Positions 1 to 49,266 of a stretch of 49,266 nt of DNA are shown here, in pieces. Source of the stretch: a virus; the IMG/VR virus record IMGVR_UViG_2710723508_000002, positions 1 to 49,266 of that record, one strand, 5' to 3'. The position numbers and the translations under genes are program-made. Within the stretch, counting starts at the first letter, position 1. Each line of letters begins with the position of its first letter. A model generated the notes under the pieces. The model saw only the letters and a list, made by a program, of their open reading frames with translations, made no database searches and had not been told where the DNA came from.

Positions 1-90
1 TGAGAAATTGCAACGTCATAGTCGTTGTTTGAACGCTTCAAAACTAGCTTAAACTGCTCTGCCAGTGACTTGTTTTTGTTAGTTTCGATA
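1..90. repeat. Terminal direct repeat copy A, identical to 49177-49266. Interpreted as a circular-assembly overlap.
   Basis: Read directly. The string tgagaaattgcaacgtcatagtcg...tttgttagtttcgata is present at both window ends, 90/90 identical. Confidence 0.97.
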
Positions 91-3000
91 AAAGAAACAA
101 CGTCTTCTTTAGTCACAAACTTAACTACCTCACGTTTTTGTGAACCCTCAACACGGGCTTTGATTTTCTCAGCCTGTCCCTCTTTGACTTCGATACCTAC
201 AGCTTTACGGCCGGACTTTACCGCTTCATCAAGTGTTACACCAGAACCAGCAAACGGGTCGAGTACCACATCGCCTTCGTTGGTCGTCATTTCGATCATC
301 TTCTTGAGCATCTGTGCTGGTTTCTCAGTCTGGTAGCCCTTCGGTCGAACCAGCTTAAAATCAAGTCCCTCAATTTGCTTGTCTGTTTTGCCGCTTTGAG
401 TGAACACCAAGATACCTTCTGGCTGTGCTACCTTTCCGTTTGGAGATGTCACTGGAGAACCATCAGCAAAAGTCTTCTGGTATTCTCCACGACCAACTGG
501 AATAAACCCTTTTGTAGTGAAGAGGTCATTGTACTTTTGCATTTTAGCCAAGCCTGATTTGGCTTGAGAGAACATGTGGATGACTGGTGAGTTCTTGTTG
601 CGCAGAATCTTTTTGACTGCAGTAAGTACCTTGTCGAATTGATTGATTGAAATGAGGTCGTATTTAACACCACGATTTCCACCCTTTACAGCTGGAGTGT
701 CATATGGGATATCAAGAAAAACCATGTCAGCCTTGAAACCTTCCTTGGCGAGTCGAGGTAGCGTAGATACAGCGTCTCCAGGGATGATGACTGCAACATC
801 TTTACCATCACGCTTGACGGTGTACACACCACTATCGACACGTTCAAATTCTCCATCTTTTGCACCCATACCAAGAATACGGCGCACGTTTGGCACCAGG
901 ATATTTGTTTCCTCAGCAATTTCTTTAATTGAAGCCTTACCCTTTTTGGCCACAACTTCCTTAACTTTGTCTTTTTGAGTCTCTGGTTTAGATGCAACTG
1001 CAGTGCCTTTTTTTTGGCTTTGGATAAACTCAACGGCCTTCTTCCTCGTGCTAAATGTGCCGAGTATGATATTTTTTCCATCCTTACTTTCACGCACGAC
1101 AAAACCCATCTCCTTGTCTTCTTTGATTGAGTACTTTTTATCCTTTTTGGTAGTAGTTTTCTTCGGCTCAACTTTGGTCGGTTCGGCTGACTTCGGCTCA
1201 CTTTTCGGAGTTTTTGGCGCGATACGGGCAGCGTTCTGTGCCACCATCTGACGCACTGTAGTGCCACCAGAACGGCGTACACCCCCTTCACTGGTAAGTT
1301 GGTCACTTACGCCATCAACGACGCTCTGACGCTGTTCTGGGGTTAAATCCGGGTAGTCTTTGGCCACTAGCTGTTCAATCGAACTGCGGGTTTGGTTTGA
1401 CGACTCTACAAGCTCACTATCAAAGTTGGTCTTGGAGATACCAGACTCCTCAGTCAAATCATCAATTTTTTGCTGCAAAGTTGCTTTTTGCGCTGGATCA
1501 GTAGCAGCCTCAAGTTCAATCTTGAGCTGTTCAATTTGAGCCATCATTTCTGACTGGCCTTTTTCAAACGTCTCGTTCATTTCATTGAACTGGTCTTGGA
1601 GGTCGGCAGCAGTACGGTCAGCAAAATCTAGTGCCGTGGTTGTATCAGTTTGGCCACTAACAATGTTCTCAACCAGGGTACTGGCTTCTTGTATTCCAAG
1701 CCCTTTGTTACCCAATCCAAGTACAATCTCCTCCGCACTTTTACCATTTTGAAGGTCAGCAGTAATCTGGGGTATTAATTCTTCTAACTCAGCTTCTTTT
1801 TTTGTGTTATTAAGCTGGTCTTGATATTTGCTGTCTACAGCGGCGGCGGCGGCTTCAACAACAGCGGGACTAGTTTTGGCCAATTGTTCAACGATATCAA
1901 CCTTCTCTTCCGCTGTCGTGCTGTCGGAGATTTGATTCTTTTGCTCGGGAGGTAGGTTTTCAACTATCTGATTTATATAATCCTCCTCTGCTTCCTTCTT
2001 CTCTTTTGGTGATGTTGCAAATCCCACTCCTTGGAAAGCTAATCCTCCAATCACACCCAATATAAACGACTGTTGGGCTTCATTTCCAAACATGTCAAAA
2101 TTCTCATCCTCTGCTTTTTTCTGTAAGTAAAGCTGGTAGACTTCCTCCCCACCCTCAGTTGTTGCACCAACTGCGCTGGTGACTGTCCCGTATATCAACT
2201 TGCTCAAAAATGAGCTATCTTTACCTAGTACATTTTTGAACGGGGTAATAGCAAGAGCCAACTGGACAGCATCCAGACCAACAAGTTTCATATTACCCTC
2301 AAAGACCTCTTGAGCAGATGTCATAGCCTCCTCCTCACTCGCGCCTTTCTCCAACATCGCTGTGTATGTATCACCAGCTTCGGATGCAGATTCTATTGGT
2401 CGCATCAGCGCAGAACCAGCCATTGAGCCGGTAACTACTCTCAAAAGAGTAGGGGCTGTTCCCATAACAGCTCCACCTATACCAAGTCCAGGCAAAGCCA
2501 AGGCGACTGATGGTACTAATGTTTGAGGTACATTAGTGAGCCAAAATTCTTTGTAACGCAGTGCTTCTATGGGGTCATCGGCCAGGATAGTTCGTATGGC
2601 TTCCGAGTCTTTTGTGGCTAACTTTTCAGCCATTCCCTCTCCACCCTTCGTCATAAATTCTCCAGCTTTCGTGTAATACTTCCATAACCCAGCATCATCA
2701 TTTGATTTCCCCAAAAATGATAGGGCTTTACCGAACATGTTTACAGTATCCCCTATACCCCGGTTGGCAGAAGCTAAGACCTCGTTTACATCGTGGGAGT
2801 ATTGCTTAAGTAATCCTCTTTTTGTACCTAGTTGTTCTTTAGCAGATTTTAGTTGTTCCGATTGATAGTTAGCCTGTTGGAGCTCTTCTTGAAAATCAGC
2901 AGTCTCTGGTTTTATTCCAAGTAATTTATCAGTCGCACCGAAGGAGTACTGCGTTGACCTCAGCGGAGCAGCCGCGGGGGTAGGTTTAGGAGCTGGCTTT

Positions 3001-3143
3001 AGAGTGCCGCCACTAGCTACGTTCATAGACGCCAAACGCTGCCTAGCCGTTACCGTGGCAGCAGCTGGAGTCGCTGGAGCAGAAGGCGCTGGAGCGTTCT
3101 TACCTGTCTTCATTTTGTTTAGAAGGTCGCGTGCTGTTGACAT
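1..3143 (-). CDS. Giant polyvalent protein, N-terminal part (codons 1-1047 of about 3345). It runs off the left edge and continues at 49176.
   Basis: ATG at 3143, 3 nt after the TAA of the upstream gene. My manual translation is open all the way to base 1. The ORF track shows no ORF of 60 aa or more in 1307-3146, as expected for an ORF with no stop inside the window. The frame (codon starts = 2 mod 3) matches the 42282-49217 ORF across the 90-bp overlap. The product starts MSTARDLLNKMKTGKN and contains Gly-rich hydrophobic segments (LALPGLGIGGAVMG, ILGVIGGLAFQGVGF). Confidence 0.85.
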   Translation of the reverse strand, partial: MSTARDLLNKMKTGKNAPAPSAPATPAAATVTARQRLASMNVASGGTLKPAPKPTPAAAPLRSTQYSFGATDKLLGIKPETADFQEELQQANYQSEQLKSAKEQLGTKRGLLKQYSHDVNEVLASANRGIGDTVNMFGKALSFLGKSNDDAGLWKYYTKAGEFMTKGGEGMAEKLATKDSEAIRTILADDPIEALRYKEFWLTNVPQTLVPSVALALPGLGIGGAVMGTAPTLLRVVTGSMAGSALMRPIESASEAGDTYTAMLEKGASEEEAMTSAQEVFEGNMKLVGLDAVQLALAITPFKNVLGKDSSFLSKLIYGTVTSAVGATTEGGEEVYQLYLQKKAEDENFDMFGNEAQQSFILGVIGGLAFQGVGFATSPKEKKEAEEDYINQIVENLPPEQKNQISDSTTAEEKVDIVEQLAKTSPAVVEAAAAAVDSKYQDQLNNTKKEAELEELIPQITADLQNGKSAEEIVLGLGNKGLGIQEASTLVENIVSGQTDTTTALDFADRTAADLQDQFNEMNETFEKGQSEMMAQIEQLKIELEAATDPAQKATLQQKIDDLTEESGISKTNFDSELVESSNQTRSSIEQLVAKDYPDLTPEQRQSVVDGVSDQLTSEGGVRRSGGTTVRQMVAQNAARIAPKTPKSEPKSAEPTKVEPKKTTTKKDKKYSIKEDKEMGFVVRESKDGKNIILGTFSTRKKAVEFIQSQKKGTAVASKPETQKDKVKEVVAKKGKASIKEIAEETNILVPNVRRILGMGAKDGEFERVDSGVYTVKRDGKDVAVIIPGDAVSTLPRLAKEGFKADMVFLDIPYDTPAVKGGNRGVKYDLISINQFDKVLTAVKKILRNKNSPVIHMFSQAKSGLAKMQKYNDLFTTKGFIPVGRGEYQKTFADGSPVTSPNGKVAQPEGILVFTQSGKTDKQIEGLDFKLVRPKGYQTEKPAQMLKKMIEMTTNEGDVVLDPFAGSGVTLDEAVKSGRKAVGIEVKEGQAEKIKARVEGSQKREVVKFVTKEDVVSFIETNKNKSLAEQFKLVLKRSNNDYDVAIS
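160..790 (-). other. Beta-class (N6A/N4C, PF01555-like) DNA methyltransferase domain embedded in the giant ORF.
   Basis: Translated motifs are DMVFLDIPYD (a variant of motif IV D/SPPY, around nt 694-720) followed by YQTEKPAQMLKKMI and VVLDPFAGSGVT (motif I FxGxG, around nt 240-270). The order IV then I is typical of the beta class. Confidence 0.8.
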
Positions 3144-3146: not shown

Positions 3147-4556
3147 TTATAGTCCTCTGAGTGCATTAATTTCTGCTTGAGTAAGTTTGTAATCCTTAAT
3201 TCTTTCTGAATCTGTATTAATCAGGTAGCCGTATTCAGCTATAAAATCTTTTCTTGAAATTCCTTTTTGTTTAGCCACTGCGAGTGACTCGGCAAATATC
3301 TCAGGGTTTGCATATCCGTCATCTCCAATCACTGGATTGCCGTCATCGTTAGCGGATTCAAAAACTGAATTGAACTCAGCCCATGCGTTATCTTCATCGT
3401 CGCCACCTCCAGCTTGTAATCTATCCTCGGTTCGATTGCGGTTGTACATTTGGTTTTCAATGTTAGCAATTTCAGTCTCGGTTTTTTTAGTCTTCAGTGC
3501 CGCGTCTCTCTTTTCACTAATAGACGTTTGTATTGAACTATAAATATCGTAATAGTCAGTATCAGTAAACATTCCTCCAGAATCACGAATAATTTTCTTG
3601 ACAATTTTATCCATGTCTTCTGGTGTTTTAGCCTCCTCAAAGTCATCCATGTACGTCAAAGCAGCTCGTTTTAGTGCTTTGTCCACTGCTTCTAAGCGTT
3701 TTGTTTCCTTTTCCTCACGCGCTTTTTCGGTAATTTCAAACCTAGTCTGTACTTCTTTTAATAAAAAGTCCACACGTTCTCGCATTTGTTCTTCAACTTT
3801 TCGTAAATCTTCTACCGAATCACGCATTGCTCCAACACGACCTTCTTGGCGTGCTGCTTTTGCTTTGGCAATTAAACTAGTGCGTTCGTTTTCAAGTTTA
3901 GAAATCTCATTTGCATTAGATTGCTCTTGTTTTGAAATTCCCTTAGTGAATTCGAGTGGAACATAACCGCCAAGGTTTTGAACCCCATACGCTTTAACTC
4001 TACCAAGGTCTACTTGGTTTATTTTTACTTGACTATCTAGTAGTTTTTCGTAAGTTGATTCAATATTAGTTACGGTAGATTTATAGGTAGCATCAATAGC
4101 CGCCAAGGTTTTCGGTAAAAGGCGGTCAATTTTCTTTTTTTCTTCGTCGTACCATTGCTGTTCTTTTTTGGTTTCGTCTTCACGATTCTTCAAATAAGCA
4201 TCGTATACAGCGTCACCACTACCATCAGAGGTAGTAGTTGTAGTGGTGGTTGTGTCAGAACCAGTAGGTGTATCTTTCTTTTCGTTAAGTCCAGTGTCTG
4301 GGATGTCTTCCGTAGGTGTCTCTCGATCAGTGATATCGCTTGAGAGACTATTATATTCCCCTACACGGTCTTCTGACGAGATAACTGGAGAACCTACTTG
4401 AATTCTGTCTACAGTGCCTGTAGGGGTCAAAATACCAGCACCAGGAATCATGTCCCCCTCACGAATACCCTGAGCACTAAGGTCATTAATTTGTGTCTCA
4501 GTGAAAGGACTTTCAGTTGTCCCCCTTCCGCTGCGGTCGTCTTTTTTTGGTGGCAT
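3147..4556 (-). CDS. Coiled-coil virion-associated protein of unknown function, with an acidic, poly-Thr N-terminal region.
   Basis: 469-aa ORF with ATG start, packed 1 nt from its neighbours. It has a T8 tract and long E/K-rich heptad-like stretches. It lies between the fibre gene and the giant ORF. Confidence 0.7.
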   Translation of the reverse strand: MPPKKDDRSGRGTTESPFTETQINDLSAQGIREGDMIPGAGILTPTGTVDRIQVGSPVISSEDRVGEYNSLSSDITDRETPTEDIPDTGLNEKKDTPTGSDTTTTTTTTSDGSGDAVYDAYLKNREDETKKEQQWYDEEKKKIDRLLPKTLAAIDATYKSTVTNIESTYEKLLDSQVKINQVDLGRVKAYGVQNLGGYVPLEFTKGISKQEQSNANEISKLENERTSLIAKAKAARQEGRVGAMRDSVEDLRKVEEQMRERVDFLLKEVQTRFEITEKAREEKETKRLEAVDKALKRAALTYMDDFEEAKTPEDMDKIVKKIIRDSGGMFTDTDYYDIYSSIQTSISEKRDAALKTKKTETEIANIENQMYNRNRTEDRLQAGGGDDEDNAWAEFNSVFESANDDGNPVIGDDGYANPEIFAESLAVAKQKGISRKDFIAEYGYLINTDSERIKDYKLTQAEINALRGL

Positions 4557-9794: not shown

Positions 9795-11555
9795 TTAATC
9801 AAATATTACAGCACCACTGTCTGTGGAAGCCGCAGCTGGCGCGTCTGTCTCTTCTGGACCGATGTAGTAGAAGGTTGAGGGTGAGGATTGGTTGTTGTAT
9901 TCGGTGGCAAGCCAGTCTAAACTTAATAATGAATTAACAACTTTTCCTTCATCGACATACCCATCCATTCTCTGTGTCGTCTCGTCACCACGAGAAAGCC
10001 AATTAAAAACACGAGTCGTTGTTACATGGGCAGCCGTACCGGACTTTGCTTCTGTTCCGTTGATGTAAACACGGGCTGTCGTACCGTCGTGCCGCCAATA
10101 AACAAACGCCCAAGAAGTAGATAAACGATTAGGAGCACTTGACCAACCAATATCTACTGAGAAGTTAGAGTACCCAAGTTCACCTGCTCCGATAGAGACA
10201 TAGCCATTGGCAGTACCTGAACCAACTCCTGTACCGTTATATGTAGAGAACGCTGTTTGCACACCAGTCACTGCGTCCAAACGAAGCCAAGCAGATACAG
10301 TGAACGCCGACGTTAAGGACCAACTACCGACTGCTATTTTACCGTTCTTACTTAGGTTAGATGCAGCACCACCCAGTTGACCAGTAGTATAAGTGATATT
10401 AGTGTCAGTACCATTTCTTCCGTTAGAAGTACTATCTGAAGAAGATGTATTCATATGCCACACCCCTTGGTATGCGCCCCACACCGCATTTCTTCCATAC
10501 GTATCAGTCACAGCATAACAAGAAGCGGCTGAGTTGCCATAGTAAACGTAAAATGTACTAGTGGAAGTAGTAGCTAGAGCGTCGGCCATGAAGTGGAGCT
10601 CCCCAGTATCAGTACTTGTGGCGTAGGCTACAAGCTCAAAAGCTGTTTCGGTGGTGTCGTCACTCTCTACTACACGGATATCACAGCCATCACCTTTGAC
10701 GTTGGTGTGAAAGCCCGCAGGGAGGTCAGCTAGGTTGAGGTATACAGGAAAAGACGTAATGGCTGTAGAAGTGCCTACTTTATTTGGATTGACTTCTACC
10801 TTTACTTTATAGTCCCAACTGGCGTTAAACCAAGGGTCTAAGTGAGAATATGCCCCTTTATCTCCAATCGCTTCAAAGTAAAAGTTGTCACTAGTGTTGG
10901 CAGGAAATTCAACATTAACTTTGTAGTAAATTACTCCATCAGTTGGTACGAGGTAGCCGACACTTTTAGTTTCCGCTATAAAGTTCTCAACGGACTTCCT
11001 GGCTTTTTTGTCTAGCTTGGTTACTTCTTTTGCTTTCTCTAAGACATCTCTAGGCTTCTGGTCTAGTGGCTGCCAAGCATTATAGACCTCAGTAGTTGTG
11101 CCTGTTTGTGTTTGGATTTCAGAACAAGTTGTCGTAGCTACGTTGTTCTTTTTTTTAGTTGAAGTAGCGATTACGTCAACACACTCAGTCCGTGTCTCAT
11201 AGGTAGGTACGTCTTGGGTGATTTCTGTCAGTACCGCGATATCAGATATCTTTTGCTTTGAATCACGAAAGTAGCCCATGAGTTCAACCTCTTGGTCTTT
11301 GCTGCTGTGGTTCTCTACTGCTACGTAGACTGTGGCGTGTGACAATCCGTCGGTGTAGGTGGATTTGTCAGTGTATATGATGAGGTCTTCTCCACTATTA
11401 TCATCAGTCCATGTGAATTCAATTGTTTGACCATTGACCGTAATAGGTTCTGGGAAGCCAGTTGCAGGGTTAATAGCACCAATATACAAGGTAGCCAGGA
11501 CCGTTCCCGCTATTCCTAAGGCAGTGATGTAAGTGGCAATAGTTTTATTTTTCAT
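9795..11555 (-). CDS. Membrane-anchored DUF2341 + LamG (concanavalin-like lectin) protein.
   Basis: N-terminal hydrophobic helix IATYITALGIAGTVLATLYIGAI. A DUF2341-like block is present (WDYKVKVEV..FPVYLNLADL..GCDIRVVESD..FYVYYGNSAAS). It is followed by a Laminin_G_3-like block (VWHMN..DSTSNGRNGT..FTVSAWLRL..RVYINGTE). The start could be the ATG at 11555 or the GTG at 11576. Confidence 0.7.
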   Translation of the reverse strand: MKNKTIATYITALGIAGTVLATLYIGAINPATGFPEPITVNGQTIEFTWTDDNSGEDLIIYTDKSTYTDGLSHATVYVAVENHSSKDQEVELMGYFRDSKQKISDIAVLTEITQDVPTYETRTECVDVIATSTKKKNNVATTTCSEIQTQTGTTTEVYNAWQPLDQKPRDVLEKAKEVTKLDKKARKSVENFIAETKSVGYLVPTDGVIYYKVNVEFPANTSDNFYFEAIGDKGAYSHLDPWFNASWDYKVKVEVNPNKVGTSTAITSFPVYLNLADLPAGFHTNVKGDGCDIRVVESDDTTETAFELVAYATSTDTGELHFMADALATTSTSTFYVYYGNSAASCYAVTDTYGRNAVWGAYQGVWHMNTSSSDSTSNGRNGTDTNITYTTGQLGGAASNLSKNGKIAVGSWSLTSAFTVSAWLRLDAVTGVQTAFSTYNGTGVGSGTANGYVSIGAGELGYSNFSVDIGWSSAPNRLSTSWAFVYWRHDGTTARVYINGTEAKSGTAAHVTTTRVFNWLSRGDETTQRMDGYVDEGKVVNSLLSLDWLATEYNNQSSPSTFYYIGPEETDAPAAASTDSGAVIFD

Positions 11556-35854: not shown

Positions 35855-36772
35855 CTACGGCTTCTGGTTTGAAGTGTCAAGGCGAGGTGTAGTATAACTT
35901 GTGGATAGTAATGTTTCCCTAATTGCAGCAAATATCTCCATGGCCACTTGCGGAACTATTGAATTGCCGCACGCCTTTAATCTTTCTTTGCGGTACTGCG
36001 CCGCCGTGATTTTGTTGGTTCGCACGCCACGAACGGTATATCCGTCCAACCTTCGGGGTAACCCATTATGTATTCCGTGAATGCAGGTTGCAGCTGCAAC
36101 CTCTTGCCAGTTTTTGTCCCAATCTCCGTACCTAATCTTTCGGTCTTCTTCCCGTTTTTCTGGTTCTGGTAACCCATAAAGTTTCTTGCTTCCAAGGTTT
36201 GCAATAATCCAGACTCTATCCCTTCTATGCAGCGCTCCAACGGCCACAGCTGGAATAATAAGCGGCTGGACTTCGTAACCTTCTCTTTCCAAATCAGTGC
36301 ACGTCTTTTCGAGAACCACACCTTCGTCCCAATCAACCAAGCCACGCACATTTTCAGCGATGACCCATTCAGGTCTGAGATTTTGTATGACAGTAAACAT
36401 TTCAGGCCACTTGTAGCGGTCGTCTGCCGTTCCTGCTCTTCGTCCAGCTCGACTGAAAGGCTGGCATGGGAAACCTCCGGTGAGAATAGTGAGTGTTTGT
36501 GTTTCGTCGCTCCGTTCTCTACCGCACTGTCCAAGGTGTCCCTGGGCTTTGTTTGACTGCCCCCCTTCCAATCCCTGGTGCTGGGTGTCGGTAACAAGGT
36601 CAGCGATGTCGCCGTAGAAGGTTCCTTCCGGCCAGTGCTTCTTGAGGACTGCTGTTGGGAACGCTTCCCATTCACAGAAAGTGTGTTTGATTTCTTGGTC
36701 ATGAAAAATAGTGTCTAGGGCTAATGAGAATCCACCAATACCAGCAAATAAATCATAGTGAATAATTTTCAT
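35855..36772 (-). CDS. dcm: DNA (cytosine-5) methyltransferase.
   Basis: Motif I DLFAGIGGFSLAL, motif IV GGFPCQPFSRAG, motif VI ENVRGL, RRDRVWIIA, and motif X GNSIVPQVA. I prefer the ATG at 36772 (MKIIHYDLF) over the track's alternative start at 36898. Confidence 0.9.
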   Translation of the reverse strand: MKIIHYDLFAGIGGFSLALDTIFHDQEIKHTFCEWEAFPTAVLKKHWPEGTFYGDIADLVTDTQHQGLEGGQSNKAQGHLGQCGRERSDETQTLTILTGGFPCQPFSRAGRRAGTADDRYKWPEMFTVIQNLRPEWVIAENVRGLVDWDEGVVLEKTCTDLEREGYEVQPLIIPAVAVGALHRRDRVWIIANLGSKKLYGLPEPEKREEDRKIRYGDWDKNWQEVAAATCIHGIHNGLPRRLDGYTVRGVRTNKITAAQYRKERLKACGNSIVPQVAMEIFAAIRETLLSTSYTTPRLDTSNQKP

Positions 36773-36942
36773 AGAAACTGACCAAGTACAATCCAGGTAA
36801 TAGCCACAGCTACGACCATGACCGCCTTCTGCTTCCAGCTGAGAGATTTCTGTGGTGGTTTGTAGTCTGGGCTCTTTGGACACCAGTAGACGTGGCAAAT
36901 CGCTTCACAGCATTCATTTTGTACACAGTAACGTTTTTGCAT
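36769..36942 (-). CDS. 57-aa Cys-rich protein with a C-terminal TM helix, missed by the ORF track.
   Basis: MQKRYCVQNECCEAICHVYWCPKSPDY...AVMVVAVAITWIVLGQFL. The ATG lies 1 nt after the upstream stop. Its stop overlaps the methyltransferase start as ATGA. Confidence 0.5.
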   Translation of the reverse strand: MQKRYCVQNECCEAICHVYWCPKSPDYKPPQKSLSWKQKAVMVVAVAITWIVLGQFL

Positions 36943-40041: not shown

Positions 40042-40043
40042 TG

Positions 40044-40124
40044 TGCTGTGTGTCGGAATCGAACCGACTGGGGTTTCCCATCAGATTTACAGTCTGACCT
40101 CGCGCCGTACGAGACTAACAAAGC
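40044..40124 (-). tRNA. tRNA-Tyr (anticodon GTA), class II-like with a short variable arm.
   Basis: Manual fold. Acceptor GCTTTGT/ACACAGC with one U-C mismatch. Anticodon arm TCAGA-CTGTAAA-TCTGA. Variable arm TGGGAAACCCCA. T-arm GTCGG-TTCGATT-CCGAC. Discriminator A. The D-arm is slightly atypical. Confidence 0.6.
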
Positions 40125-40187
40125 AAAACCGCCGATATTCTTTCGCGTCATTAAGAGGGGTCAATTCCCTTTCAACGTCGGCTTTTG

Positions 40188-40259
40188 TTCAGGGTGGGAG
40201 AATCGAACTCCGCATTTCCACGTTATGAGCGTGGCGACTTACCATTAGTCCAACCCCAA
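40188..40259 (-). tRNA. tRNA-Met (anticodon CAT); could instead be an Ile2-type tRNA.
   Basis: Manual cloverleaf. Acceptor TTGGGGT/ACCCTGA with two G-U pairs. D-arm GACT-AATGGTA-AGTC. Anticodon arm CCACG-CTCATAA-CGTGG. T-arm (C)GGAG-TTCGATT-CTCC(C). Confidence 0.75.
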
Positions 40260-41065: not shown

Positions 41066-42109
41066 TTATTGTCTTAAACGATAATAATAAATCGGGAAGC
41101 CTCCATTTTTCATATACCGAGTCTTCCACGATTCCTCGGTAAAGTTTTTCTTGAACGTGCCTGTATAGCTATCGTTCGACATAATCTCTCCCTCAAAGCC
41201 ACAAATTCCAACGTGACCGGGGATGGTTCCATTACCCATACCAGTTGGAGAAATTATGATGGCTCCAGGTTCTGGTTCGCCAATGGCCTCAAACCTATCA
41301 TCGTTCTTTAACTTTTCCCAAAGAGTCCAAGTACCTGTGATGATGGGAAAAGAAATAAATTTTCGTATGAGCATACTGACAGTCTCAGCACAACCAAATT
41401 CATCTGGGACAAGGTCGTTTGGAGAAACATCGCTACCTAAAGATTGCAGAGAGAGAATAAACAAATTAACTGGTTCATCTACTACCTCTCCCTCTTCGTG
41501 ATGGTCTGGTGGATTTTTTGGGTTAAAATTTTCAATCATACCTTGAAGTTGCAAAATAAGTGATAACACTTGAGCGTGTAATTTATTCCAGGCAGTGAAG
41601 TCGTGGGTCAGAAATATTCCCTTCATGTTCTTTAGGGTGTAGTCAAAGAGATGGGTGTAGTCAAAGACGCCGCGCCAGTGAGAGAATCCATGAGATAGTT
41701 CATGACAAAAGATGCGCACAAAAGAAGTCATGTCATCATAGGAGGTACCGTTCTTGTCGGCAATAACCACAAAGTCAAAGACCGCATCGCTGTCTCTGTT
41801 GTATACCCCGCCGAGTTCTTTATTTGGGTTTGGATGTTTGAGTCCAAGCCGGTCGCGCTCGTACCGTGAGATGTGTAGGCAGACAGCGTTGTGTCCTTCT
41901 GCCGGGCAGTTGGTTTTCATCCAGTCCCAGCGAATGTACGTGCCGCCATTTACGTAAGTCGGAACTACCGATGGTAGACTCATGTATTTCACAGTGAAAG
42001 TTTCAAAAGTCAAACCCTTAGCTTTTTTTATGATTTCATAAATCGCCTTGAAATGACTCTTAACCCAGAGAGACTTATTGGTCGTGTAAATGATGGTTTT
42101 TACGTGCAT
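41066..42109 (-). CDS. Cell-wall hydrolase (endolysin candidate) with a C-terminal papain-like Cys-His peptidase domain (CHAP/NlpC-P60 type) and an N-terminal HExxH region.
   Basis: C-terminal PDEFGCAETVSMLI ... GAIIISPTGMGNGTIPGHVGICG ... IMSNDS. N-terminal FCHELSHGFSH. It is flanked by two small membrane-protein genes. Confidence 0.6.
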   Translation of the reverse strand: MHVKTIIYTTNKSLWVKSHFKAIYEIIKKAKGLTFETFTVKYMSLPSVVPTYVNGGTYIRWDWMKTNCPAEGHNAVCLHISRYERDRLGLKHPNPNKELGGVYNRDSDAVFDFVVIADKNGTSYDDMTSFVRIFCHELSHGFSHWRGVFDYTHLFDYTLKNMKGIFLTHDFTAWNKLHAQVLSLILQLQGMIENFNPKNPPDHHEEGEVVDEPVNLFILSLQSLGSDVSPNDLVPDEFGCAETVSMLIRKFISFPIITGTWTLWEKLKNDDRFEAIGEPEPGAIIISPTGMGNGTIPGHVGICGFEGEIMSNDSYTGTFKKNFTEESWKTRYMKNGGFPIYYYRLRQ

Positions 42110-42111: not shown

Positions 42112-42273
42112 TTAGAAAAAGAGCGCGTTACCTGTTAATGCTGCTGCACAAACAAGGATGAATACCCCGCCAGACGCAAGAGTGAATGCGGTGTAATCCT
42201 CCCTTACCCTTTTTGCCAAAATTATTAGGGCTGAACCTAGAACTGCGAAACATATAGCTGAAATTATTGTCAT
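42112..42273 (-). CDS. Holin-like two-TM protein.
   Basis: ATG at 42273, 8 nt after the giant ORF's stop. MTIISAICFAVLGSALIILAKRVREDYTAFTLASGGVFILVCAAALTGNALFF. Confidence 0.55.
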   Translation of the reverse strand: MTIISAICFAVLGSALIILAKRVREDYTAFTLASGGVFILVCAAALTGNALFF

Positions 42274-42281
42274 GTCTTTAA

Positions 42282-45200
42282 TTATATACTCTCGTAATAT
42301 GCTTTTGGTACAACTTTCCACTCCGAGTATGCACGTCGTGCAAACTCCTTGTCCCCTTGAATCACTGCGTTTCGATCAGCGTCGTCTTCGGCTTCGGCCA
42401 AAAGTGCTATTTTTTCTCGCTCTTCTGGGGTTGCAAATGAAATACTACGCAATTCTTTTCGAAGTTGGTCACTGAAAAGTGGTGTAGCAATACCAAACAT
42501 AGACATACTTACGTCGTACTTGTCAAGTGCCTGACTTGGTTCTGGCAGTCTTGCGACCACCGCCTTTACCACGTTGTTGTCCTTTCCTTCGAGAGCAGCA
42601 TTGACGATTGGGTCGTCATATCCAAACTTTTGTCGGATAGAAACTTCCTTAATAATCTCAGCTTTTTTGTCTGCTTTGTACTGAGCATCTCCTTCGACGT
42701 AGTCCTTTCCGTACACCTCAATCGCCATCTCGTTTATTTGTTCAGCTGTGATTTCACCATCGCCCTGTATTTGTGATTGCAACATCTCGGTTCGCTTTTC
42801 AGCGTTGGTGCGGTCGTCGTAGGCAATATCAAGATTACGTCCGATACTACCAAGTCCGGCAATATCTGGGGCGGTGAGGAATTGGTGTAATTGCTGAGTT
42901 CCAGGGAAACCAAGCACCATGAGAGTATTTTTAAGCACGTTGTATACCTCCTTGTTACTGGCTCCGTCCTTAAACAGGTTAGTGACATTCTCCGCAATTT
43001 TGTCAATGGCTTCAATACTAGGGTTGTTGATTCGGAGTCCTTCAAGAGAGCCGTCAAATCCAAGAAGGTACCCTGTTCCAGGAACACGTCCGGCAATAGC
43101 AACGAAGTATCGCTTCCACAGAGTTTGATCCTCGTCGTCTTCATAACCAAAGAGTGAGGAGAGCACCATGTACATGATGATTTCGTACGTTACAGCCATG
43201 CCAATATAACTCAAGTTTCCAGCCCCCTTTAGTAAACCTTTACTAGTCCCGTGCTTCTTAAGCTCCATGATGACACCGTCGTAGCGAGCGTTGTTAAAGG
43301 CATTAAAGATGAAAGAACTAAACGGTAAGAAGAATTTGGCGCTAGAGTTATTGAGGATTTGTGGACGATTCGCGACGTTGTGTGAAGACTGAGACAAAAT
43401 CATTATTTGTTCAGACCGGGCAATCGCTTCACTCTCTGACAGCCCTTGCTTCATATAGCCATTCTTCATCACGTTGAATACGGATGTAGCAACACGTATG
43501 TCAACTGTGCGAATACCGATATAGGCATGTTCACGATACTTCTGCCAGCCACGTGCCCAAGCATTTGGAGAGAAGACACCACGATACATACTTTGCATTT
43601 CAGCAATATCAATCTGGCCACCTTGGCGGTTTTGAAGTTCTTTACTACTAGCAACACTGGCATCTAGTTTCGCTTTATTGAGTGCCAAAGAAATAAGCTC
43701 TGGGAAGACTTTTGCTGCAGCTCTCCAGCCAAGCTCTTTGTGAACGTTCATCATTCCGTCAAACGCACCAGAAATCTGCACCAAAACAGTTGAAATTTTG
43801 TAACCAAGAATCGCTAAAGTGACGTTACCGCGCGCCCAGTCCATGATATTTTGCATCCAACTACGCTGACCACGGCCGTTGGTGGCGACGTCAGTAATGT
43901 ACTGACTCCAGTAATCGAGGGTGACTTTGTCAGCCTTGGCCTTGTATTCTTTTGAGTTCACAAGCGCCTTAATACTCTCAAGCTCTGGCTGTACCTTGGC
44001 GTAGAATACCTGCTTCTTTACCTGAGAAACAAACGTTCTGAAAATGTTGGTATCAAGCACACGGCCGACTTGGTTTGTACGTTCCATCGTGAAGCCTTGC
44101 GCAGTCTTCTTCACATCAAAGTCAAATACGTTTTCTTCAATCGTAAACGACTCCACATTTGAGTCGTAACTTAGTGGGAAATAGTTTTCAATATTCGGGA
44201 ATGGTCGGTTATTGATTGCTTCGTAGGTGGCAGCAATCTGGCCGCGAATATCTTTGAACACAGACTGCATGATTTCTAGCGCCGCTGACTCTTTCTCGGA
44301 GAGTGGTGTCGAAAAGTCCACCTTCTTGGCAGGGTCTTTTACCTGAGTGTTGTAGTAATCAACAAGTGCCTCAGCTTGGCTAGTGGCCTCCTGAGCCATT
44401 GCAGACTGATATGTGATACGAACCATCTCGTCGTCAGTAAACGACTCAGCGACCAATTTTAGGTCTTCTAGGGCATCTTTGATAACAAGGTTGGTTTCAA
44501 GTTCAGCTTCGTTAATAGCCTGGCGAACTGGCTCCACTAGCTGTTTATAGTTTTCGCCTTGGTAATCAGCAGCGCCGTCAATATAAGATGCCATACGAGC
44601 TGGGTCGTAGATTTTGGCAGAGGCTTTATCTGTGCCACGTCGCATACGGTTAATGAATGAGTTTGCATCCTTTCCGGGAACTTGTTTGTTGAATTGGTGG
44701 GTACTAGCGACTAGCTTAGAGATATTCTCAGCGAGTGTCTTCTCGTCTCGCGACTTCATCAACTTTTTCTTAAGCACACCCTGGTCATAGATACGTTCTA
44801 CCTCAGCCACAAGCGCAGTGAGTGTGGCGTCGTCTAATTTACCAATTGGTGTACGAGAAAGTCGCTGTAGGTTTTGAGCTACGTTTTCTGGAATTTCCCC
44901 TTCTTGTTTTGCAAAGAATTCAGCTGTCTCAGTCAGTTTCTTTTGAGTAGCGACGCTCATCGACACCAGGTCAATTGTTTCGTAGAGAGCCATCAAACGC
45001 TCTTGGTAATCCAACGGCAAATACGCACCTGTCTTGGTGGCTTTTTTAACCCGGCGGAAAATAGTTTTGAGGGTGTCAATTTTATCCTTACGTTCTCGCT
45101 TGATACGAGTCTCTTGGCGAATCTGTTGACGGCCAGCTACTGAACCGTCACGATAACCACGCTTCTCGCCCATAGTGACGTAGTACTCCTTGCGCATCAA

Positions 45201-48200
45201 AAACTTCTTGCGCATGTTAAGCCGCCGCTGCAAATCTCGCAGCGCTTTGTTGACAGTCTGACCTTGGCGACGTGAGGCAGCAATATCCTTTCTCAAGGTG
45301 CGCAAACGCTTCTTGGTTTCAGCCAATTCAGTCCGGCGTTCTAGGTAATCGTAGAGTTCCTTGGTAGTTACATCTGTCTCTTTCAAAGCGGCCTCTCCGG
45401 CCTTTGTAAGCGTCTTAGGGGGCTTTTTGGTAGTGAAGCGTGCCACTTTACGCACTTCGGTACTTGCTCCCTTCACAACGGTGGCCAGCATACCCTTAGT
45501 CTCCAGCTTCTGCCCGAGTTCGTCCTTCCATAAATCAGCGTCCTTCTCAAGTTGAGCAAGCTGAGTTGATGCTTGGTTGTGCTGGACAATTAGTTTTTGA
45601 GTATAAGCGTCGTCTGTTTCCTTCTTCTTCAATCGAACCTCATTTGGTGTATTGCGTAGATCCAACACACCTTCTTCAATAAACGATTGGACTAGGCCAG
45701 TGTTCTCCAAGAAAACCATTTGCGCGTTTACATCCTCACCAAACTCCAGCAGGTCGTAGTAATCCTTAATGATGTCTGGGTAGCCCTTAATAAAGTTCTT
45801 AAAAGAGCCATACAGCTTCTTAAGCAGCGCGTAGAATTTGCGGATGATGCCCTTGGCCTCGTAGGTATTCTGTCGGTAGGACTCGAAATTTTTAGCCAAA
45901 TCTTCTTCCACCTTTTCAATCTGTTGAGCATTCATTTTATCCAACTCAAAGAAACTCCAGCCAGACTGCATAGCCTGGGCGCGAAGCAGTTTCTCTCTAG
46001 TGATACCGTTCTTGACCATGATTGGAATACGGTGTGCATTCGCTACTGTGAGGTGGACTACCTCATGGCGGTCAGTATTTTCTACCGCGTCTTTTACAAG
46101 AGCAATCGTGTTGTCTGAGTACAAACCAAAAGCCTCAATGTTGTCTTGGTTTTTTGTGATAGCGTTTTCTTTGATACCAGCAAGAATGACGTCGGCATAC
46201 ACCACATCGAACGAAAGGTTCCACCGGTTGCGAATATCACTCAAAAAGGCAGACCGAGTGACGGTTTGCGAGTTTCTTTTGGACTTATTGGCACTGTCAA
46301 ACTTTGCAAAGTCTGAGATAAACTCCCGGCTCTGGTCAGACGAATTGACGTCGTGGCGCAGCTTATACATTGCCTTGCTAGGACTGTCTTCCACCACAAT
46401 GGCTTCAAAGATTTTATCAAAGCCTTCCATGACCATCTTGACCTCTTGCTCTCCGCGAGCGTATGGGTACACTTCTGCCAAGGTTGTATCTACGTCAGCA
46501 TGCTTTCGTAGACCTACAAGTGCGTTGTTTTCAACGCCAGCCTCCTGCATCTTATTGAAGATATACGACTCAAACATACGAGCCGACATTTCAATGTGAG
46601 TAGAAAAGTATGGCTTACTCTTATTTCCATCAGCTTTTTTAGAACGAGTGTACACGTCAGAAATTCCTACATTTAACATCAAATCTCTAAATGCGTTCTC
46701 TACCTCTTTTCGTTGGTACTTTAGTTTGTCCGACACAAAACCATAGACATCGCCATTGCGACGGCCAAGGTAGTTATCAAAAGCGTGCCACCACTCATGT
46801 GCGATTGAACCAATACCACCCTCTTTGGTTAGGTTGATTACAACAAAGTCTGGCTCATAGTGAGCAATTGCTCCCTTGCGGCCGCGAGAACCAAAAGCAA
46901 AACCTAGTTCGCCGTTAAGGGACAATGATTTGTCTGGCACTCCTAGTGTGTTTGCAAGCTCCTTAAACGCATCATACGCGAGGTTAAGACGCTCTTGACG
47001 CTCTTGTTGAGTCACCCAATTACCAAACTCAACACCTTTGAATCCGAAGGTGTTGCGGAAATCCTCAGCACTAATATCTTTGCCGTCTCGGTATGAACGT
47101 GACGATTCTAGTCCGGCTACACGGAAATTGTTTTCATCAAAACTGACTGACTCCGCAATTGACTTTACGTACTCCTGTAGCTTATCCGGGTCTTTGAGAG
47201 CCTCACGCGCTTCGGCAGCAGACGCAAAGACTTCAAATTCAACAAAGCGGCTACCTTTCTTAAAGGCGGTCATGATTTTAGAGCCTTGACGAAATACGCT
47301 TATGTAGTCTGCAAGGTCAAGTTGTTTCTTCCCGGCTTTTTCTTGTGCCATTTCCCCTTCCATCACCGCGTACACCTCTTCTATATTGGTTCCGTAGCTT
47401 TTATGCTGTCCCTGTTGAGTAGTGTAGTTTTTATTAAGTGTCTTGCCGTTCTTTCGCAGACTGTAAAATGTAACCGGTTCAGTATTTTGACTACTACTTG
47501 ACCTGCCCCTTTGAACAAAAACGGTATACTTCTGCACCTCTGGATTGTTCAAGAAATCAAACTTCTTATGAAGGTTGACGGTCGCACCGATACTGCTAGT
47601 CAGTTCTTTTTCTCCGGCTTTTTCTATCACTTCATTTAGCTTCTCAAATACCCCAGTCGCACCTTCGGTATTTTTATTGATTAGCATTTTACCAGCCACG
47701 TCACGCAAGAATTTTACATCTTTAATCCACTTTTCAGTCTTGAGTCGAGCATACCTACCAGTTGGCTTTTTAGGTAGCTCAGCGCGCATTGTAGCGTACA
47801 AAGAGAGTGCGTTTACATCTACACCAGCCTCAGCTAAAGCTGCAAAGTCAACGGATGGTAAAAGCTTTGCGACCGGCTGCGTCATGATGTCTGAGTCAGA
47901 CAAATCTTTGGTGTACTTCTCAGCAAGTGCTGCAAATTTATCTTTGGCAGCGCCTCCGATTTTTTTACCGACATCAACGTTTTTAACTGCAGTGGTATCT
48001 ACTTTTGGTGGGTTCTTTGACTTATCAGCTTTCTTTGCTGGCTTAGTCACTTTGCTTTTCTCCTCTAGAATTACTTTAGCGTCAGCCATTTGAATTTGCT
48101 CTACATCGAACACTACGTACTCATAAATAGTCTGACCGTTCTCATCTTTACCAAACGCAGAAACGATACCGTCAAAGCCAGCGTCAATCATTTTCTGTTT

Positions 48201-49266
48201 ATTCTCAATGTCGCTGTAAAGTCCGTCCTGTAATTCACCTAGAGTACCCAAATCAATCGCGTCATCTAAGTATTCCAATGCTTCTTTAGGGCTAATAGCT
48301 TTTTCACCAGATAGTAATTCGTATACAAATTCAGCTTGAGACTCTTTCGTGAGAATGCCAGCAAGAGTTAAGTCAAGTGGATTTTTAAGACTAAGCTTTG
48401 CTTTCTTTACTTGTGCAGGACGGTTATCGCCTTGTGGTCGGGTGTCTTCTACGAATTGCTTGGCTCGGGCTTCATCACCAATGAAGAACGTACCAAAACT
48501 GGCATTGTCCCATTGTGTGTTTTCGCCTACACGCTTTGCGTCAAACTTATCGAAGTCAGCAAGTGTACCGTGATACACCACGTCAGGAATTACAATAGCG
48601 TCTTCACTTTTTTTTTCAGTGGACGGTGTGTCGCCGTCTTCGTCAGCGTCGTCAGCTTTTTCTCGACGCATTAAATAGCCGTCTTCGTCAACTTGGTACA
48701 ACTGATATGTAGTATTTCCAGCTTTGAGCTTGCCGTCTTTGTCGATACTTTCAATCACCCAACGCTTGCCGTCGAGTTCGATAATCTCACCAACTTTACC
48801 CAAAGGTTTTGAGCTAGGGAGAACACCATAACCGAGTCCAATAAATGAACCCTCGTAGTTGATAGTGTTATTCATCGGGTCAGCCTTCTTAGCGTCGAGG
48901 TCTGTAGCAAGAATCTTGGGGAACTTTGTTGTTTTATCTAGTTCCGCAACTACGTCTGGCTGGTATTTTTCAGCTACATCTTTTGGAATTAACTTGTTTT
49001 TGTACAAAAACTTAATCACTGAAATGTCAGTAAATATAAGAAATTGTTTAGCTTCTTCTATGCCGTATTTTTCTTCTTGATATTCTCGCCACGCTTTTGC
49101 ACCCTCTAGGGTCATACCCTCAGTTTCAGTGTCTTGGTGAAAAAACTCTTTTTCTTTTTTTAGTAACAGTAAATACTGAGAAATTGCAACGTCATAGTCG
49201 TTGTTTGAACGCTTCAAAACTAGCTTAAACTGCTCTGCCAGTGACTTGTTTTTGTTAGTTTCGATA
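42282..49266 (-). CDS. Giant polyvalent protein, C-terminal part (about 2,300 codons). It is open to the right window edge, and 49177-49266 duplicates 1-90.
   Basis: The track ORF 42282-49217 begins at an internal TTG. The frame stays open upstream to base 49266 and is continuous with 1-3143 after the 90-bp overlap is removed. The combined ORF is 10,038 nt, encoding 3,345 aa. Confidence 0.9.
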   Translation of the reverse strand, partial: IETNKNKSLAEQFKLVLKRSNNDYDVAISQYLLLLKKEKEFFHQDTETEGMTLEGAKAWREYQEEKYGIEEAKQFLIFTDISVIKFLYKNKLIPKDVAEKYQPDVVAELDKTTKFPKILATDLDAKKADPMNNTINYEGSFIGLGYGVLPSSKPLGKVGEIIELDGKRWVIESIDKDGKLKAGNTTYQLYQVDEDGYLMRREKADDADEDGDTPSTEKKSEDAIVIPDVVYHGTLADFDKFDAKRVGENTQWDNASFGTFFIGDEARAKQFVEDTRPQGDNRPAQVKKAKLSLKNPLDLTLAGILTKESQAEFVYELLSGEKAISPKEALEYLDDAIDLGTLGELQDGLYSDIENKQKMIDAGFDGIVSAFGKDENGQTIYEYVVFDVEQIQMADAKVILEEKSKVTKPAKKADKSKNPPKVDTTAVKNVDVGKKIGGAAKDKFAALAEKYTKDLSDSDIMTQPVAKLLPSVDFAALAEAGVDVNALSLYATMRAELPKKPTGRYARLKTEKWIKDVKFLRDVAGKMLINKNTEGATGVFEKLNEVIEKAGEKELTSSIGATVNLHKKFDFLNNPEVQKYTVFVQRGRSSSSQNTEPVTFYSLRKNGKTLNKNYTTQQGQHKSYGTNIEEVYAVMEGEMAQEKAGKKQLDLADYISVFRQGSKIMTAFKKGSRFVEFEVFASAAEAREALKDPDKLQEYVKSIAESVSFDENNFRVAGLESSRSYRDGKDISAEDFRNTFGFKGVEFGNWVTQQERQERLNLAYDAFKELANTLGVPDKSLSLNGELGFAFGSRGRKGAIAHYEPDFVVINLTKEGGIGSIAHEWWHAFDNYLGRRNGDVYGFVSDKLKYQRKEVENAFRDLMLNVGISDVYTRSKKADGNKSKPYFSTHIEMSARMFESYIFNKMQEAGVENNALVGLRKHADVDTTLAEVYPYARGEQEVKMVMEGFDKIFEAIVVEDSPSKAMYKLRHDVNSSDQSREFISDFAKFDSANKSKRNSQTVTRSAFLSDIRNRWNLSFDVVYADVILAGIKENAITKNQDNIEAFGLYSDNTIALVKDAVENTDRHEVVHLTVANAHRIPIMVKNGITREKLLRAQAMQSGWSFFELDKMNAQQIEKVEEDLAKNFESYRQNTYEAKGIIRKFYALLKKLYGSFKNFIKGYPDIIKDYYDLLEFGEDVNAQMVFLENTGLVQSFIEEGVLDLRNTPNEVRLKKKETDDAYTQKLIVQHNQASTQLAQLEKDADLWKDELGQKLETKGMLATVVKGASTEVRKVARFTTKKPPKTLTKAGEAALKETDVTTKELYDYLERRTELAETKKRLRTLRKDIAASRRQGQTVNKALRDLQRRLNMRKKFLMRKEYYVTMGEKRGYRDGSVAGRQQIRQETRIKRERKDKIDTLKTIFRRVKKATKTGAYLPLDYQERLMALYETIDLVSMSVATQKKLTETAEFFAKQEGEIPENVAQNLQRLSRTPIGKLDDATLTALVAEVERIYDQGVLKKKLMKSRDEKTLAENISKLVASTHQFNKQVPGKDANSFINRMRRGTDKASAKIYDPARMASYIDGAADYQGENYKQLVEPVRQAINEAELETNLVIKDALEDLKLVAESFTDDEMVRITYQSAMAQEATSQAEALVDYYNTQVKDPAKKVDFSTPLSEKESAALEIMQSVFKDIRGQIAATYEAINNRPFPNIENYFPLSYDSNVESFTIEENVFDFDVKKTAQGFTMERTNQVGRVLDTNIFRTFVSQVKKQVFYAKVQPELESIKALVNSKEYKAKADKVTLDYWSQYITDVATNGRGQRSWMQNIMDWARGNVTLAILGYKISTVLVQISGAFDGMMNVHKELGWRAAAKVFPELISLALNKAKLDASVASSKELQNRQGGQIDIAEMQSMYRGVFSPNAWARGWQKYREHAYIGIRTVDIRVATSVFNVMKNGYMKQGLSESEAIARSEQIMILSQSSHNVANRPQILNNSSAKFFLPFSSFIFNAFNNARYDGVIMELKKHGTSKGLLKGAGNLSYIGMAVTYEIIMYMVLSSLFGYEDDEDQTLWKRYFVAIAGRVPGTGYLLGFDGSLEGLRINNPSIEAIDKIAENVTNLFKDGASNKEVYNVLKNTLMVLGFPGTQQLHQFLTAPDIAGLGSIGRNLDIAYDDRTNAEKRTEMLQSQIQGDGEITAEQINEMAIEVYGKDYVEGDAQYKADKKAEIIKEVSIRQKFGYDDPIVNAALEGKDNNVVKAVVARLPEPSQALDKYDVSMSMFGIATPLFSDQLRKELRSISFATPEEREKIALLAEAEDDADRNAVIQGDKEFARRAYSEWKVVPKAYYESI
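46548..47075 (-). other. Zincin-like metallopeptidase domain (MPTase-PolyVal type) in the giant ORF.
   Basis: FGFKGVEFGNWVTQQERQ ... AFGSRGRKGAIAHYEP..VINLTKEGGIGSIAHEWWHAFDNYL. The HExxH motif is at nt 46799-46785. Confidence 0.65.
48084..48596 (-). other. ART-like (ADP-ribosyltransferase of polyvalent proteins type) domain in the giant ORF.
   Basis: IPDVVYHGTLADFDKFD ... SFGTFFIGDEARAKQF ... GFDGIVSAF ... YEYVVFDVEQIQ. This matches my recollection of the H-Y-E ART-PolyVal pattern. No search was run. Confidence 0.5.
49177..49266. repeat. Terminal direct repeat copy B, identical to 1-90.
   Basis: Direct comparison of the window ends. Confidence 0.97.

Follow-up and report, generated by a model that had tools for sequence, protein, structure and literature searches.

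A 3,345-residue phage protein with polyvalent effector domains between conserved terminal modules, a probable internal virion protein

The virus record IMGVR_UViG_2710723508_000002 (positions 1 to 49,266; this whole stretch of 49,266 nucleotides is called the window below) encodes on its minus strand a giant protein of 3,345 amino acids (aa), the open reading frame (ORF) of which runs across the ends of the contig. Our analyses suggest, with a probability that we put at about 0.65, that this ORF specifies an ejection protein, an internal virion protein like Bbp10 of phage BPP-1, in which some 2,000 residues of polyvalent effector domains are held between a conserved N-module and a conserved C-module. 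The C-module is homologous, by profile comparison, to the C-terminal part of Bbp10; the two end modules recur in a family of large phage proteins with differing inserts; the protein is devoid of cysteine, as are most proven ejection proteins that were checked; and the genes of the family close the virion module in every context examined.

A giant reading frame with conserved ends and a polyvalent centre

Window positions 1-90 and 49177-49266 form an exact 90-bp repeat, so the contig closes as a circle of 49,176 bp, and minus-strand positions 3143 to 1 joined to 49176 to 42282 give 10,038 nt, a length divisible by 3, whose translation of 3,345 aa has the terminal stop as its sole stop and occupies 20.4% of the 49,176-bp genome. 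Continuity at the junction rests on this exact overlap, on the kept reading frame and on one profile match that bridges it (a PHROG methyltransferase profile, aa 786-1085); an earlier reading of the DNA without database searches (the sequence-only reading) had proposed the same uninterrupted ORF, and the overlap, frame and joined translation uphold it. The start ATG lies at 3143, with the TAA of the upstream gene ending 3 nt earlier and an AGAGGA, read from the sequence, 9 nt 5' of the ATG, and the two genes are apparently translationally coupled. The long ORFs of the window all lie on one strand, and a collection protein of 1,384 aa (P0001) is 100% identical to aa 1962-3345 of the giant protein. 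The parts of the ORF are as follows.

1..3143, minus strand: 5' part of the giant ORF, aa 1-1047 and two bases of codon 1048 (joined translation)
42282..49176, minus strand: 3' part of the giant ORF, from the last base of codon 1048 to the stop codon at 42282-42284 (joined translation)
49177..49266, no strand: terminal overlap, duplicate of 1-90, circular or circularly permuted assembly (exact 90-bp match)
1887..2777, minus strand: conserved N-module, aa 123-419 (hidden Markov model, HMM, from 15 'minimal' family members, E 1.3e-37)
1227..1886, minus strand: acidic, Gln-rich helical or coiled-coil spacer, aa 420-639 (composition)
789..1226, minus strand: Lys-rich linker, aa 640-740, then a possible winged-helix segment, aa ~745-785 (composition)
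144..788, minus strand: predicted beta-class N6/N4 DNA methyltransferase domain, aa 786-1000 (PF01555, E 2.4e-20)
48078..48587, minus strand: ART-PolyVal ADP-ribosyltransferase (ART) domain, aa 1245-1414 (PF18760, E 1.2e-11, 46 bits against a cut-off of 31.2)
46053..48059, minus strand: conserved central block, aa 1421-2089 (phrog_616, E 8.1e-84 over aa 1421-2080)
45030..46052, minus strand: helical region with a very basic end, aa 2090-2430 (composition; common to close relatives only)
42876..45029, minus strand: conserved all-alpha C-module, aa 2431-3148 (module HMM, E 1e-108)
42285..42875, minus strand: C-terminal extension, aa 3149-3345, ending in YYESI (found in the closest relatives only)

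The two modules frame a protein family. An exhaustive HMMER search with the C-terminal 1,144 residues as query returned 425 relatives of 1,100-3,800 aa, in all of which (425/425) the match is C-terminal; many of them also possess the N-terminal region by local BLAST and phmmer, and 'minimal' members of ~1,400 aa consist of little beyond the N-module and the C-module. With module boundaries set by HMMs from fifteen of these 'minimal' members, both modules were found in 56 proteins, where the insert between them measures 188-2,119 residues (median 481); that of the giant protein, at 2,012 residues, is among the largest. The cargo of these inserts includes ART-PolyVal, RadC, MuF_C, ParB, kinase-PolyVal, PBECR5, ddrB-ParB, LPD38 and methyltransferases, and the combination of conserved ends with inserts of differing cargo thus describes the protein as a conserved two-part carrier with a very large central cargo cassette. 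For example, P0003 (3,817 aa) has the same N-module, methyltransferase, ART domain, zincin/LPD1 block and C-module. Other searches for relatives were unproductive: megablast and tblastn of aa 2202-3345 against GenBank phages found nothing, a word-indexed protein search recovered no relatives with the N-terminus and solely the protein itself with the C-terminus, scans of IMG/VR, GTDB genome and JGI metagenome contigs for C-module relatives found nothing, and a scan of IMG/VR for the large terminase (TerL) gave three short contigs only.

Five further giants (e.g. L015:8001-17378) show partial kinship. P0113, P0120 and P0122 share the N-module, and P0132 and P0145 are related by other parts; the basic region at aa 2200-2400 is present in all five, and the methyltransferase with its DIPY motif (see below) in P0113, P0120, P0132 and P0145 but not P0122. 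Their last ~900 residues are unrecognised by the C-module HMM, and the C-terminal module may therefore be exchangeable or may have diverged past detection in these proteins. The 'minimal' members, for their part, have an 80-residue helical domain between the modules that is without counterpart in the window protein and also lies inside Bcep22 gp75 (aa 1344-1426; L008:22951-36759; hhalign probability 96.5%, E 9e-10).

The C-module includes two hydrophobic helices, aa 2833-2853 (43761-43823) and aa 3036-3057 (43149-43214). An AlphaFold2 (AF2) model of aa 2400-3345, built from a 44-sequence alignment, is almost all-helical and confident (predicted local distance difference test score, pLDDT, 84.3; predicted template modelling score, pTM, 0.73). 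A Foldseek comparison of the C-module model with the PDB gave no match (best E 0.22, TM <=0.1). In BFVD it has 107 matches at E <=0.001; the listed ones come, with few exceptions, from later chunks of large phage proteins and bear names such as 'PolyVal ADP-ribosyltransferase', 'large polyvalent protein-associated domain', 'crystallin beta/gamma motif-containing protein', 'MuF C-terminal domain' and 'nuclease'. The N-module contains the motif RPIES..EA and, by hydropathy, two Gly-zipper-like hydrophobic helices at aa 209-230 (2454-2519) and aa 359-377 (2013-2069); its AF2 model is helical, confident only over ~aa 229-440, and has no fold match in the PDB by Foldseek. Neither end has a known family: aa 1-640 and aa 2200-3345 gave no match to Pfam, PHROG or NCBIfam families or to PDB sequences, and a PDB sequence search with the 'minimal' family profile gave none. 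Between the N-module and the first enzyme domain, the spacer is alignable in a few close relatives only, the linker (aa 640-740) is 29% Lys plus Arg, and no profile or PDB match falls within the linker and winged-helix stretch (789..1226).

The first domain of the cassette is predicted to be a beta-class N6-adenine/N4-cytosine DNA methyltransferase. It scores 73.9 bits against N6_N4_Mtase (PF01555; Pfam cut-off 26.7), matches phrog_67 (E 8.9e-27) and the NCBIfam adenine methyltransferase models, and has CcrM (the best) and M.RsrI as its solved relatives. Motif IV (DIPY, aa 811-814; 702-713, minus strand) lies N-terminal of motif I (DPFAGSG at aa 962; 240-260, minus strand), and this order, together with CcrM and M.RsrI as best relatives, points to the beta class. 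The DIPY variant, with Ile for the first Pro of the canonical DPPY, is common to the giant protein and 6 related proteins. A second, stand-alone DNA methyltransferase gene lies at 35855-36898 (minus strand; phrog_363, E 5e-55) in the replication/recombination module, so the phage has two methyltransferases, one free and one within the giant protein.

The ART domain exceeds its Pfam cut-off; just 4 ART sequences were retrieved, too few for a judgement on its catalytic residues. It is followed by the central block, in which an LPD5-like region (aa 1615-1757, E 4.2e-4) lies under and LPD1 (aa 1897-1973, E 1.3e-11) over the Pfam cut-off, and in which NCBIfam CLCA_X matches aa 1740-1965 with E 3.2e-45, under its own cut-off. 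Here we found the zincin metallopeptidase motif HEWWHAFD at aa 1841-1848 (46776-46799, minus strand), preceded by AIAHYEP. In the phage-type zincins, which Iyer et al. describe as widely distributed (PMC5512222), strand 2 ends in a His and HExxH is followed by an Asp at the third residue, and HEWWHAFD with the upstream His of AIAHYEP fits this type. A second HExxH, HEVVH (aa 2085-2089; 46053-46067, minus strand), which the sequence-only reading did not mention, lies 244 residues after HEWWHAFD. The pair recurs in 7 proteins at a spacing of 224-294 residues, one of them the 2,807-aa 'LPD5 domain-containing protein' of Shiga toxin (Stx) phages, with which the central block shares 31-32% identity over ~640 aa. 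The HEVVH region has no match in Pfam and may represent a second, unannotated metallopeptidase-like domain. A PDB sequence search with aa 1230-2340 gave no match. The helical region behind the block reaches 28% Lys plus Arg over aa 2250-2430.

This content agrees closely with what the sequence-only reading had listed. Its polyvalent-protein architecture is borne out by ART-PolyVal, LPD1 and N6_N4_Mtase, all over their Pfam cut-offs, and its ART-like module by the first of these; the beta-class methyltransferase is confirmed by motif order, PF01555 score and CcrM as best solved relative, and the HEWWH zincin by the extended motif, its upstream His and the CLCA_X match, albeit under cut-off. The Gly-rich hydrophobic segments in the N-terminal ~640 aa, the basic linker and the hydrophobic helices in the C-terminal third were likewise recovered. 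The winged helix-turn-helix-like segment, on the other hand, gained no support from profile or PDB searches.

Kinship with Bbp10 and comparison with other giant virion proteins

The homology of the C-module to BPP-1 Bbp10 (2,052 aa), and with it the placement in the Bbp10 family, was found by two profile methods: the C-module family profile aligns with the C-terminal part of Bbp10 over 490 columns (hhalign probability 98.3%, E 1.8e-14), and the C-module HMM matches Bbp10 with E 4.8e-20. A tblastn search with the Bbp10 C-terminal part retrieved 48 phage records, all of 39-48 kb, including BPP-1-like phages, Xanthomonas CP2-like phages, Pseudomonas AF/HU1, Caulobacter Jess A, Vibrio 1.021, Acinetobacter Ab9, OANV1 and Nostoc/Microcystis phages, in which the annotations are 'hypothetical', 'lysin' or 'coil containing'. 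The significance of Bbp10 comes from Hardies et al. 2016, whose Table 2 lists it among the homologues of T7 internal virion protein D (gp16), together with epsilon15 gp17, VT2-Sakai orf71 (2,793 aa), BcepMigl gp69, the N4 gp50 C-terminal domain and H66 gp60, the last with a methylase site in its middle; the same work assigns Bbp10 and its podovirus homologues to the epsilon15 group and describes internal virion proteins as hosts of domains destined for the cytoplasm (PMC4819975). The suggestion in the sequence-only reading that the giant protein doubles as an internal or ejected virion protein thus finds support in the homology of its C-module to an internal virion protein D homologue. Profiles of the modules had no significant match to epsilon15 gp16 or T7 gp15.

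Beyond the homologous all-alpha C-terminal module, Bbp10 resembles the giant protein in being nearly devoid of Cys and in being encoded by a large gene of the virion cassette beside tail/fibre genes, preceded by another large helical protein. It differs in that the N-module is undetected, the cargo is another one and the database annotation is that of a crystallin-motif protein or 'lysin'; the identity between the two is too low for BLAST, and in BPP-1 the fibre genes come after the Bbp10 gene, not before it as in the window.

The genomic context was compared in seven contigs carrying family members (L005, L006, L009, L010/L011, L015, L016). In 7/7 the giant gene is the last large gene of the virion module, behind the tail and fibre genes, and a gene of 470-580 codons directly precedes it; one of these contigs (L006) also encodes an epsilon15-type GP7 capsid protein, Bbp16 and a Gp10-like protein. 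The window follows this order, the giant gene being the last large gene of its virion module, after the terminase, large ORFs including a collar-fibre gene, and a 469-aa partner gene. The three closest relatives, on contigs of 44.9-50.4 kb, keep the block made up of the 479-aa, 604-aa, collar-fibre, 469-aa partner and giant genes.

A further shared trait is the absence of cysteine. The giant protein has 0 Cys in 3,345 residues, where ~23 would be expected (Poisson 7e-11) from the 28 other window proteins (58 Cys in 8,306 residues, 0.70%). Cysteine is also absent from 166 of the 195 family proteins that exceed 1,000 aa, from the 469-aa partner gene product and its L015 and L016 homologues, and from T7 gp15 and gp16, N4 gp50, gp51 and gp52, Bcep22 gp75 and gp74, and Bbp11 and Bbp12. 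Bbp10 and T7 gp14 have one Cys each, gp14 being the sole exception among the proven ejection proteins checked. The absence of Cys may be a signature of proteins that travel unfolded through tail and periplasm, which is our own interpretation and not an established rule.

The protein also fits the polyvalent class, since it is phage-encoded, stands in a DNA-delivery (virion module) context and joins at least two unrelated effector domains in one polypeptide, three of its domains (N6_N4_Mtase, ART-PolyVal, LPD1) lying over Pfam cut-offs. With the polyvalent proteins of Iyer et al. 2017 (PMC5512222) it shares the diagnostic ART-PolyVal and LPD1, a phage-type zincin HExxHxxD and an N6-adenine methylase, all within a single polypeptide whose gene lies among virion genes; transmembrane segments, BPP-1 and Bcep22 are not mentioned in that paper. 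Unlike known polyvalent proteins, the giant protein has end modules that match no Pfam family, LPD families included. A P1 DarB-type antirestriction protein was considered and rejected, as no helicase family appears among the Pfam, PHROG and NCBIfam matches.

Three other giants of similar bearing were compared. The Sp5 ORF80/933W-type Stx protein (2,793-2,807 aa), whose gene is the last of the late region, is 31-32% identical to the central ~640 aa and has both HExxH motifs at a similar spacing, but its ends are not detectably related to the N- and C-modules and its aligned part is without methyltransferase or ART domain. Its C-terminus is shared with Bcep22 gp75 and not with the giant protein; membership of the F116 group, to which Sp5 ORF80 and Bcep22 gp75 belong, was accordingly rejected, because a C-terminal ~900-aa module is common to Stx gp77 and Bcep22 gp75 (E 1e-67) but not to the giant protein, which among the F116-group giants shares only the central LPD5-zincin-LPD1 block, and only with Stx gp77. 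Bcep22 gp75 and JC1 gp69 ('DarB-like', 4,515-4,602 aa) are like the giant protein in taking up ~22% of the genome, in closing the virion module a short way upstream of the lysis genes and in having no Cys; their cargo is different, and all that they share with the module family is the 80-aa helical domain of its 'minimal' members. JC1 gp69 (4,515 aa, 22.1% of the genome) has been detected in purified virions by mass spectrometry (PMC9144972). Finally, the N4 gp50 virion RNA polymerase (3,500 aa) is of similar size and has no Cys, whereas sequence similarity is undetectable and it carries an RNA polymerase in place of the methyltransferase, ART and zincin. Its membrane-spanning N-terminal domain, RNA polymerase and C-terminal domain leave the virion like beads on a string, and after ejection the protein is anchored at the inner membrane (PMC13434306).

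Packaging and ejection weighed against other readings

From these likenesses we infer how the protein could act. A few copies would be packaged in the capsid above the portal, alongside the cysteine-free 469-aa upstream product, and at adsorption would be expelled, largely unfolded, via the portal and the (probably short) tail. The Gly-zipper helices of the N-module, and possibly the two C-module helices, would enter the inner membrane or be anchored there and so contribute to a DNA conduit, a role that would parallel those of T7 gp16 and the N4 gp50 N-terminal domain. The central beads-on-a-string enzymes would then refold in the cytoplasm, where the methyltransferase could shield the incoming phage DNA against restriction and host proteins could be targets of the ADP-ribosyltransferase. 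Active pieces could be cut from the polyprotein by the zincin domain(s), in line with a proposal of Iyer et al. on polyvalent proteins.

Several observations weigh against this picture. Packaging, for the giant protein as for the whole Bbp10-like module family, is a prediction from sequence and not an experimental finding. Direct comparison of the C-module with T7 gp16 by hhalign gave a probability of 5% (E 0.008, 52 columns) and with epsilon15 gp17 an E of 0.28-0.44, both with a single target sequence, and comparison with N4 gp50 and with the C-termini of Stx gp77/Bcep22 gp75 was not significant, so that the link to the gp16 superfamily depends on one published transitive analysis (PMC4819975). 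The C-module model resembles no solved structure, which covers the T7 ejectosome entries provided that the library has them. When the remaining virion proteins of the window were compared pairwise with proteins of epsilon15, BPP-1 and L006, no match fell under E 0.01, nor did window virion proteins match tail-tube or core proteins in Pfam, PHROG or NCBIfam; a short-tailed morphology is for this reason an inferred one. As to the cargo, LPD5 and CLCA_X fall short of their curated cut-offs, and with DIPY in place of DPPY methyltransferase activity is not assured.

The alternative that survives best, which we nevertheless consider unlikely, is that of a tail structural or assembly protein that stays with the particle or acts in morphogenesis, with enzymes that serve the cell in which the particles are made, where they might, for instance, methylate progeny DNA ahead of its packaging. 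Sp5 ORF80, which shares the central 640-aa block, is essential for infectious particles, and its deletion leaves DNA-filled heads that are not bound by tail-fibre antibody, which its authors read as a tail-assembly defect (PMC5155283); the position of the giant gene within the late virion operon suits this alternative too. However, tails can also fail to attach when a core or ejection protein is lost, and the Sp5 phenotype thus fits both readings, and an assembly-phase protein would hardly account for the Cys-free composition seen in proven ejected proteins or for the effector cargo found across the family (ART, RNases, kinase, ParB, RadC).

It is decidedly improbable that the protein is an unpackaged, cytoplasmic multi-enzyme counter-defence protein encoded by chance beside virion genes. 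All its recognisable domains are indeed enzymes acting on DNA or proteins, but the end modules bear no enzymatic signature and are tied, in every context examined, to the same virion-module position and to a cysteine-free partner gene. In addition, the 'minimal' members are nearly free of cargo, so the scaffold has a function of its own.

It is very improbable that the protein is the tape measure of a phage with a long tail, to which enzymatic domains have been added. The protein is long, mostly helical and equipped with Gly-rich hydrophobic segments, and there is no other tape-measure candidate. As a rule, a tape measure accounts for ~0.15 nm of tail per residue, by which a protein of 3,345 residues would imply a tail some 500 nm long. 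We rejected this identity on position, the gene standing at the module end behind the fibre genes and not between tail chaperones and distal tail proteins, and on the ten-fold variation of insert length in the family, which is unfit for a length ruler; moreover, tail-tube, sheath and chaperone profiles were not found in the window, and the module relatives occur in BPP-1-like podoviruses of 39-48 kb.

An assembly artefact, in which circularisation fused two unrelated ORFs in frame, is hardly credible: the 90-bp repeat corresponds to aa 1018-1048 and the homologue alignments, which end at ~aa 1030, never cross the whole of it, but the overlap is exact, the frame is kept, the PHROG methyltransferase match spans the junction, and P0003 and P0120 hold the N-module, methyltransferase and central block in the same order in one gene on contigs unsplit there, P0003 with the ART domain and C-module as well. 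All these alternatives are less likely than the packaged and ejected reading.

Neighbouring genes and meaning for the family

The genes on either side of the giant ORF are listed below.

3147..4556, minus strand: partner gene, 469 aa, cysteine-free, coiled-coil-rich (homologues of 483-500 aa directly upstream of the giant gene in L009, L015 and L016)
42112..42321, minus strand: 69-aa ORF that overlaps the giant ORF at its end, candidate holin (two hydrophobic segments)
41066..42109, minus strand: 347-aa protein, candidate endolysin (PG_binding_1 protein at the same position in L015)

The 469-aa partner has no match in profile searches and is probably a second ejection protein. The sequence-only reading had the giant ORF directly following the fibre genes, with no internal core proteins otherwise visible; the former is incorrect, as the cysteine-free coiled-coil partner intervenes, and the latter too strong, the partner being a candidate for that role. 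The block of 479-aa, 604-aa, collar-fibre and 469-aa genes (window 3147-9322, minus strand) is also present in L009, L015 and L016. In L015 and L016 the first ~115 residues of the fibre genes are conserved and the distal part is variable, as expected of a receptor-binding protein. Within the tail-gene block, a 158-aa protein with several hydrophobic segments (9326-9802, minus strand) has a PHROG 'holin' match (phrog_13191, E 9e-8); by its position it could be a small membrane-active virion or ejection protein instead of a holin. The large terminase is closest to P1 PacB and Salmonella phage terminases (27-31% identity).

No minus-strand terminator was found after the giant ORF. Downstream of it, the 69-aa and 347-aa proteins are accompanied by a 97-aa hydrophobic protein, and the replication and recombination genes then follow. 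The 347-aa protein has an HELSH motif, and its C-terminal Cys...His pair (FGCAETVS ... GHVGICG) resembles that of a cysteine peptidase. A lysis function of these genes, as previously proposed, is plausible in view of their transmembrane segments and the PG_binding_1 protein at the same place in L015, whereas in the window itself the three proteins have zero profile matches. The putative lysis genes are separated from the replication module by two tRNA genes, Tyr-GTA and Met-CAT (40043-40124 and 40187-40259, minus strand).

Earlier publications contain the general idea (PMC5512222, PMC4819975), and podoviruses are already known to have giant polyvalent proteins in their virions. The supposition that this domain combination had not been characterised therefore stands as regards experiment and not as regards novelty of concept or occurrence, since the methyltransferase is present in at least 6 metagenomic relatives, 4 of which also have the paired HExxH zincin block. 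The new elements are the two carrier modules with their limits, the interchangeable central cargo, the confident C-module model and the cysteine-free signature. A wider proposal, which we advance tentatively and at somewhat less than even odds, is that the two end modules are halves of a split carrier for protein injection that has not been described before. Its cassette site would take almost any cargo of ~190-2,100 residues, its ends would build a conduit across the envelope or dock to one, and the cargo would be set free by embedded zincins; the near-complete lack of cysteine could then serve as a genome-wide signature of ejected proteins.

If the giant protein is packaged and injected, a fifth of the coding capacity of this phage would be given over to enzymes made in advance, namely a DNA methylase, an ADP-ribosyltransferase and one or two proteases, present in the host ahead of any phage gene expression, at the stage when restriction, and perhaps other immediate defences, need countering. 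For the family, two modules without annotation now have boundaries, and one has a confident structural model; these could become family models, and the comparative set shows the modules bracketing interchangeable cargo in at least 56 of several hundred related proteins. The modules and the Cys clue would aid the annotation of giants now labelled 'hypothetical' or 'lysin' in podovirus genomes, and the modules point to a natural chassis for protein delivery into bacteria.

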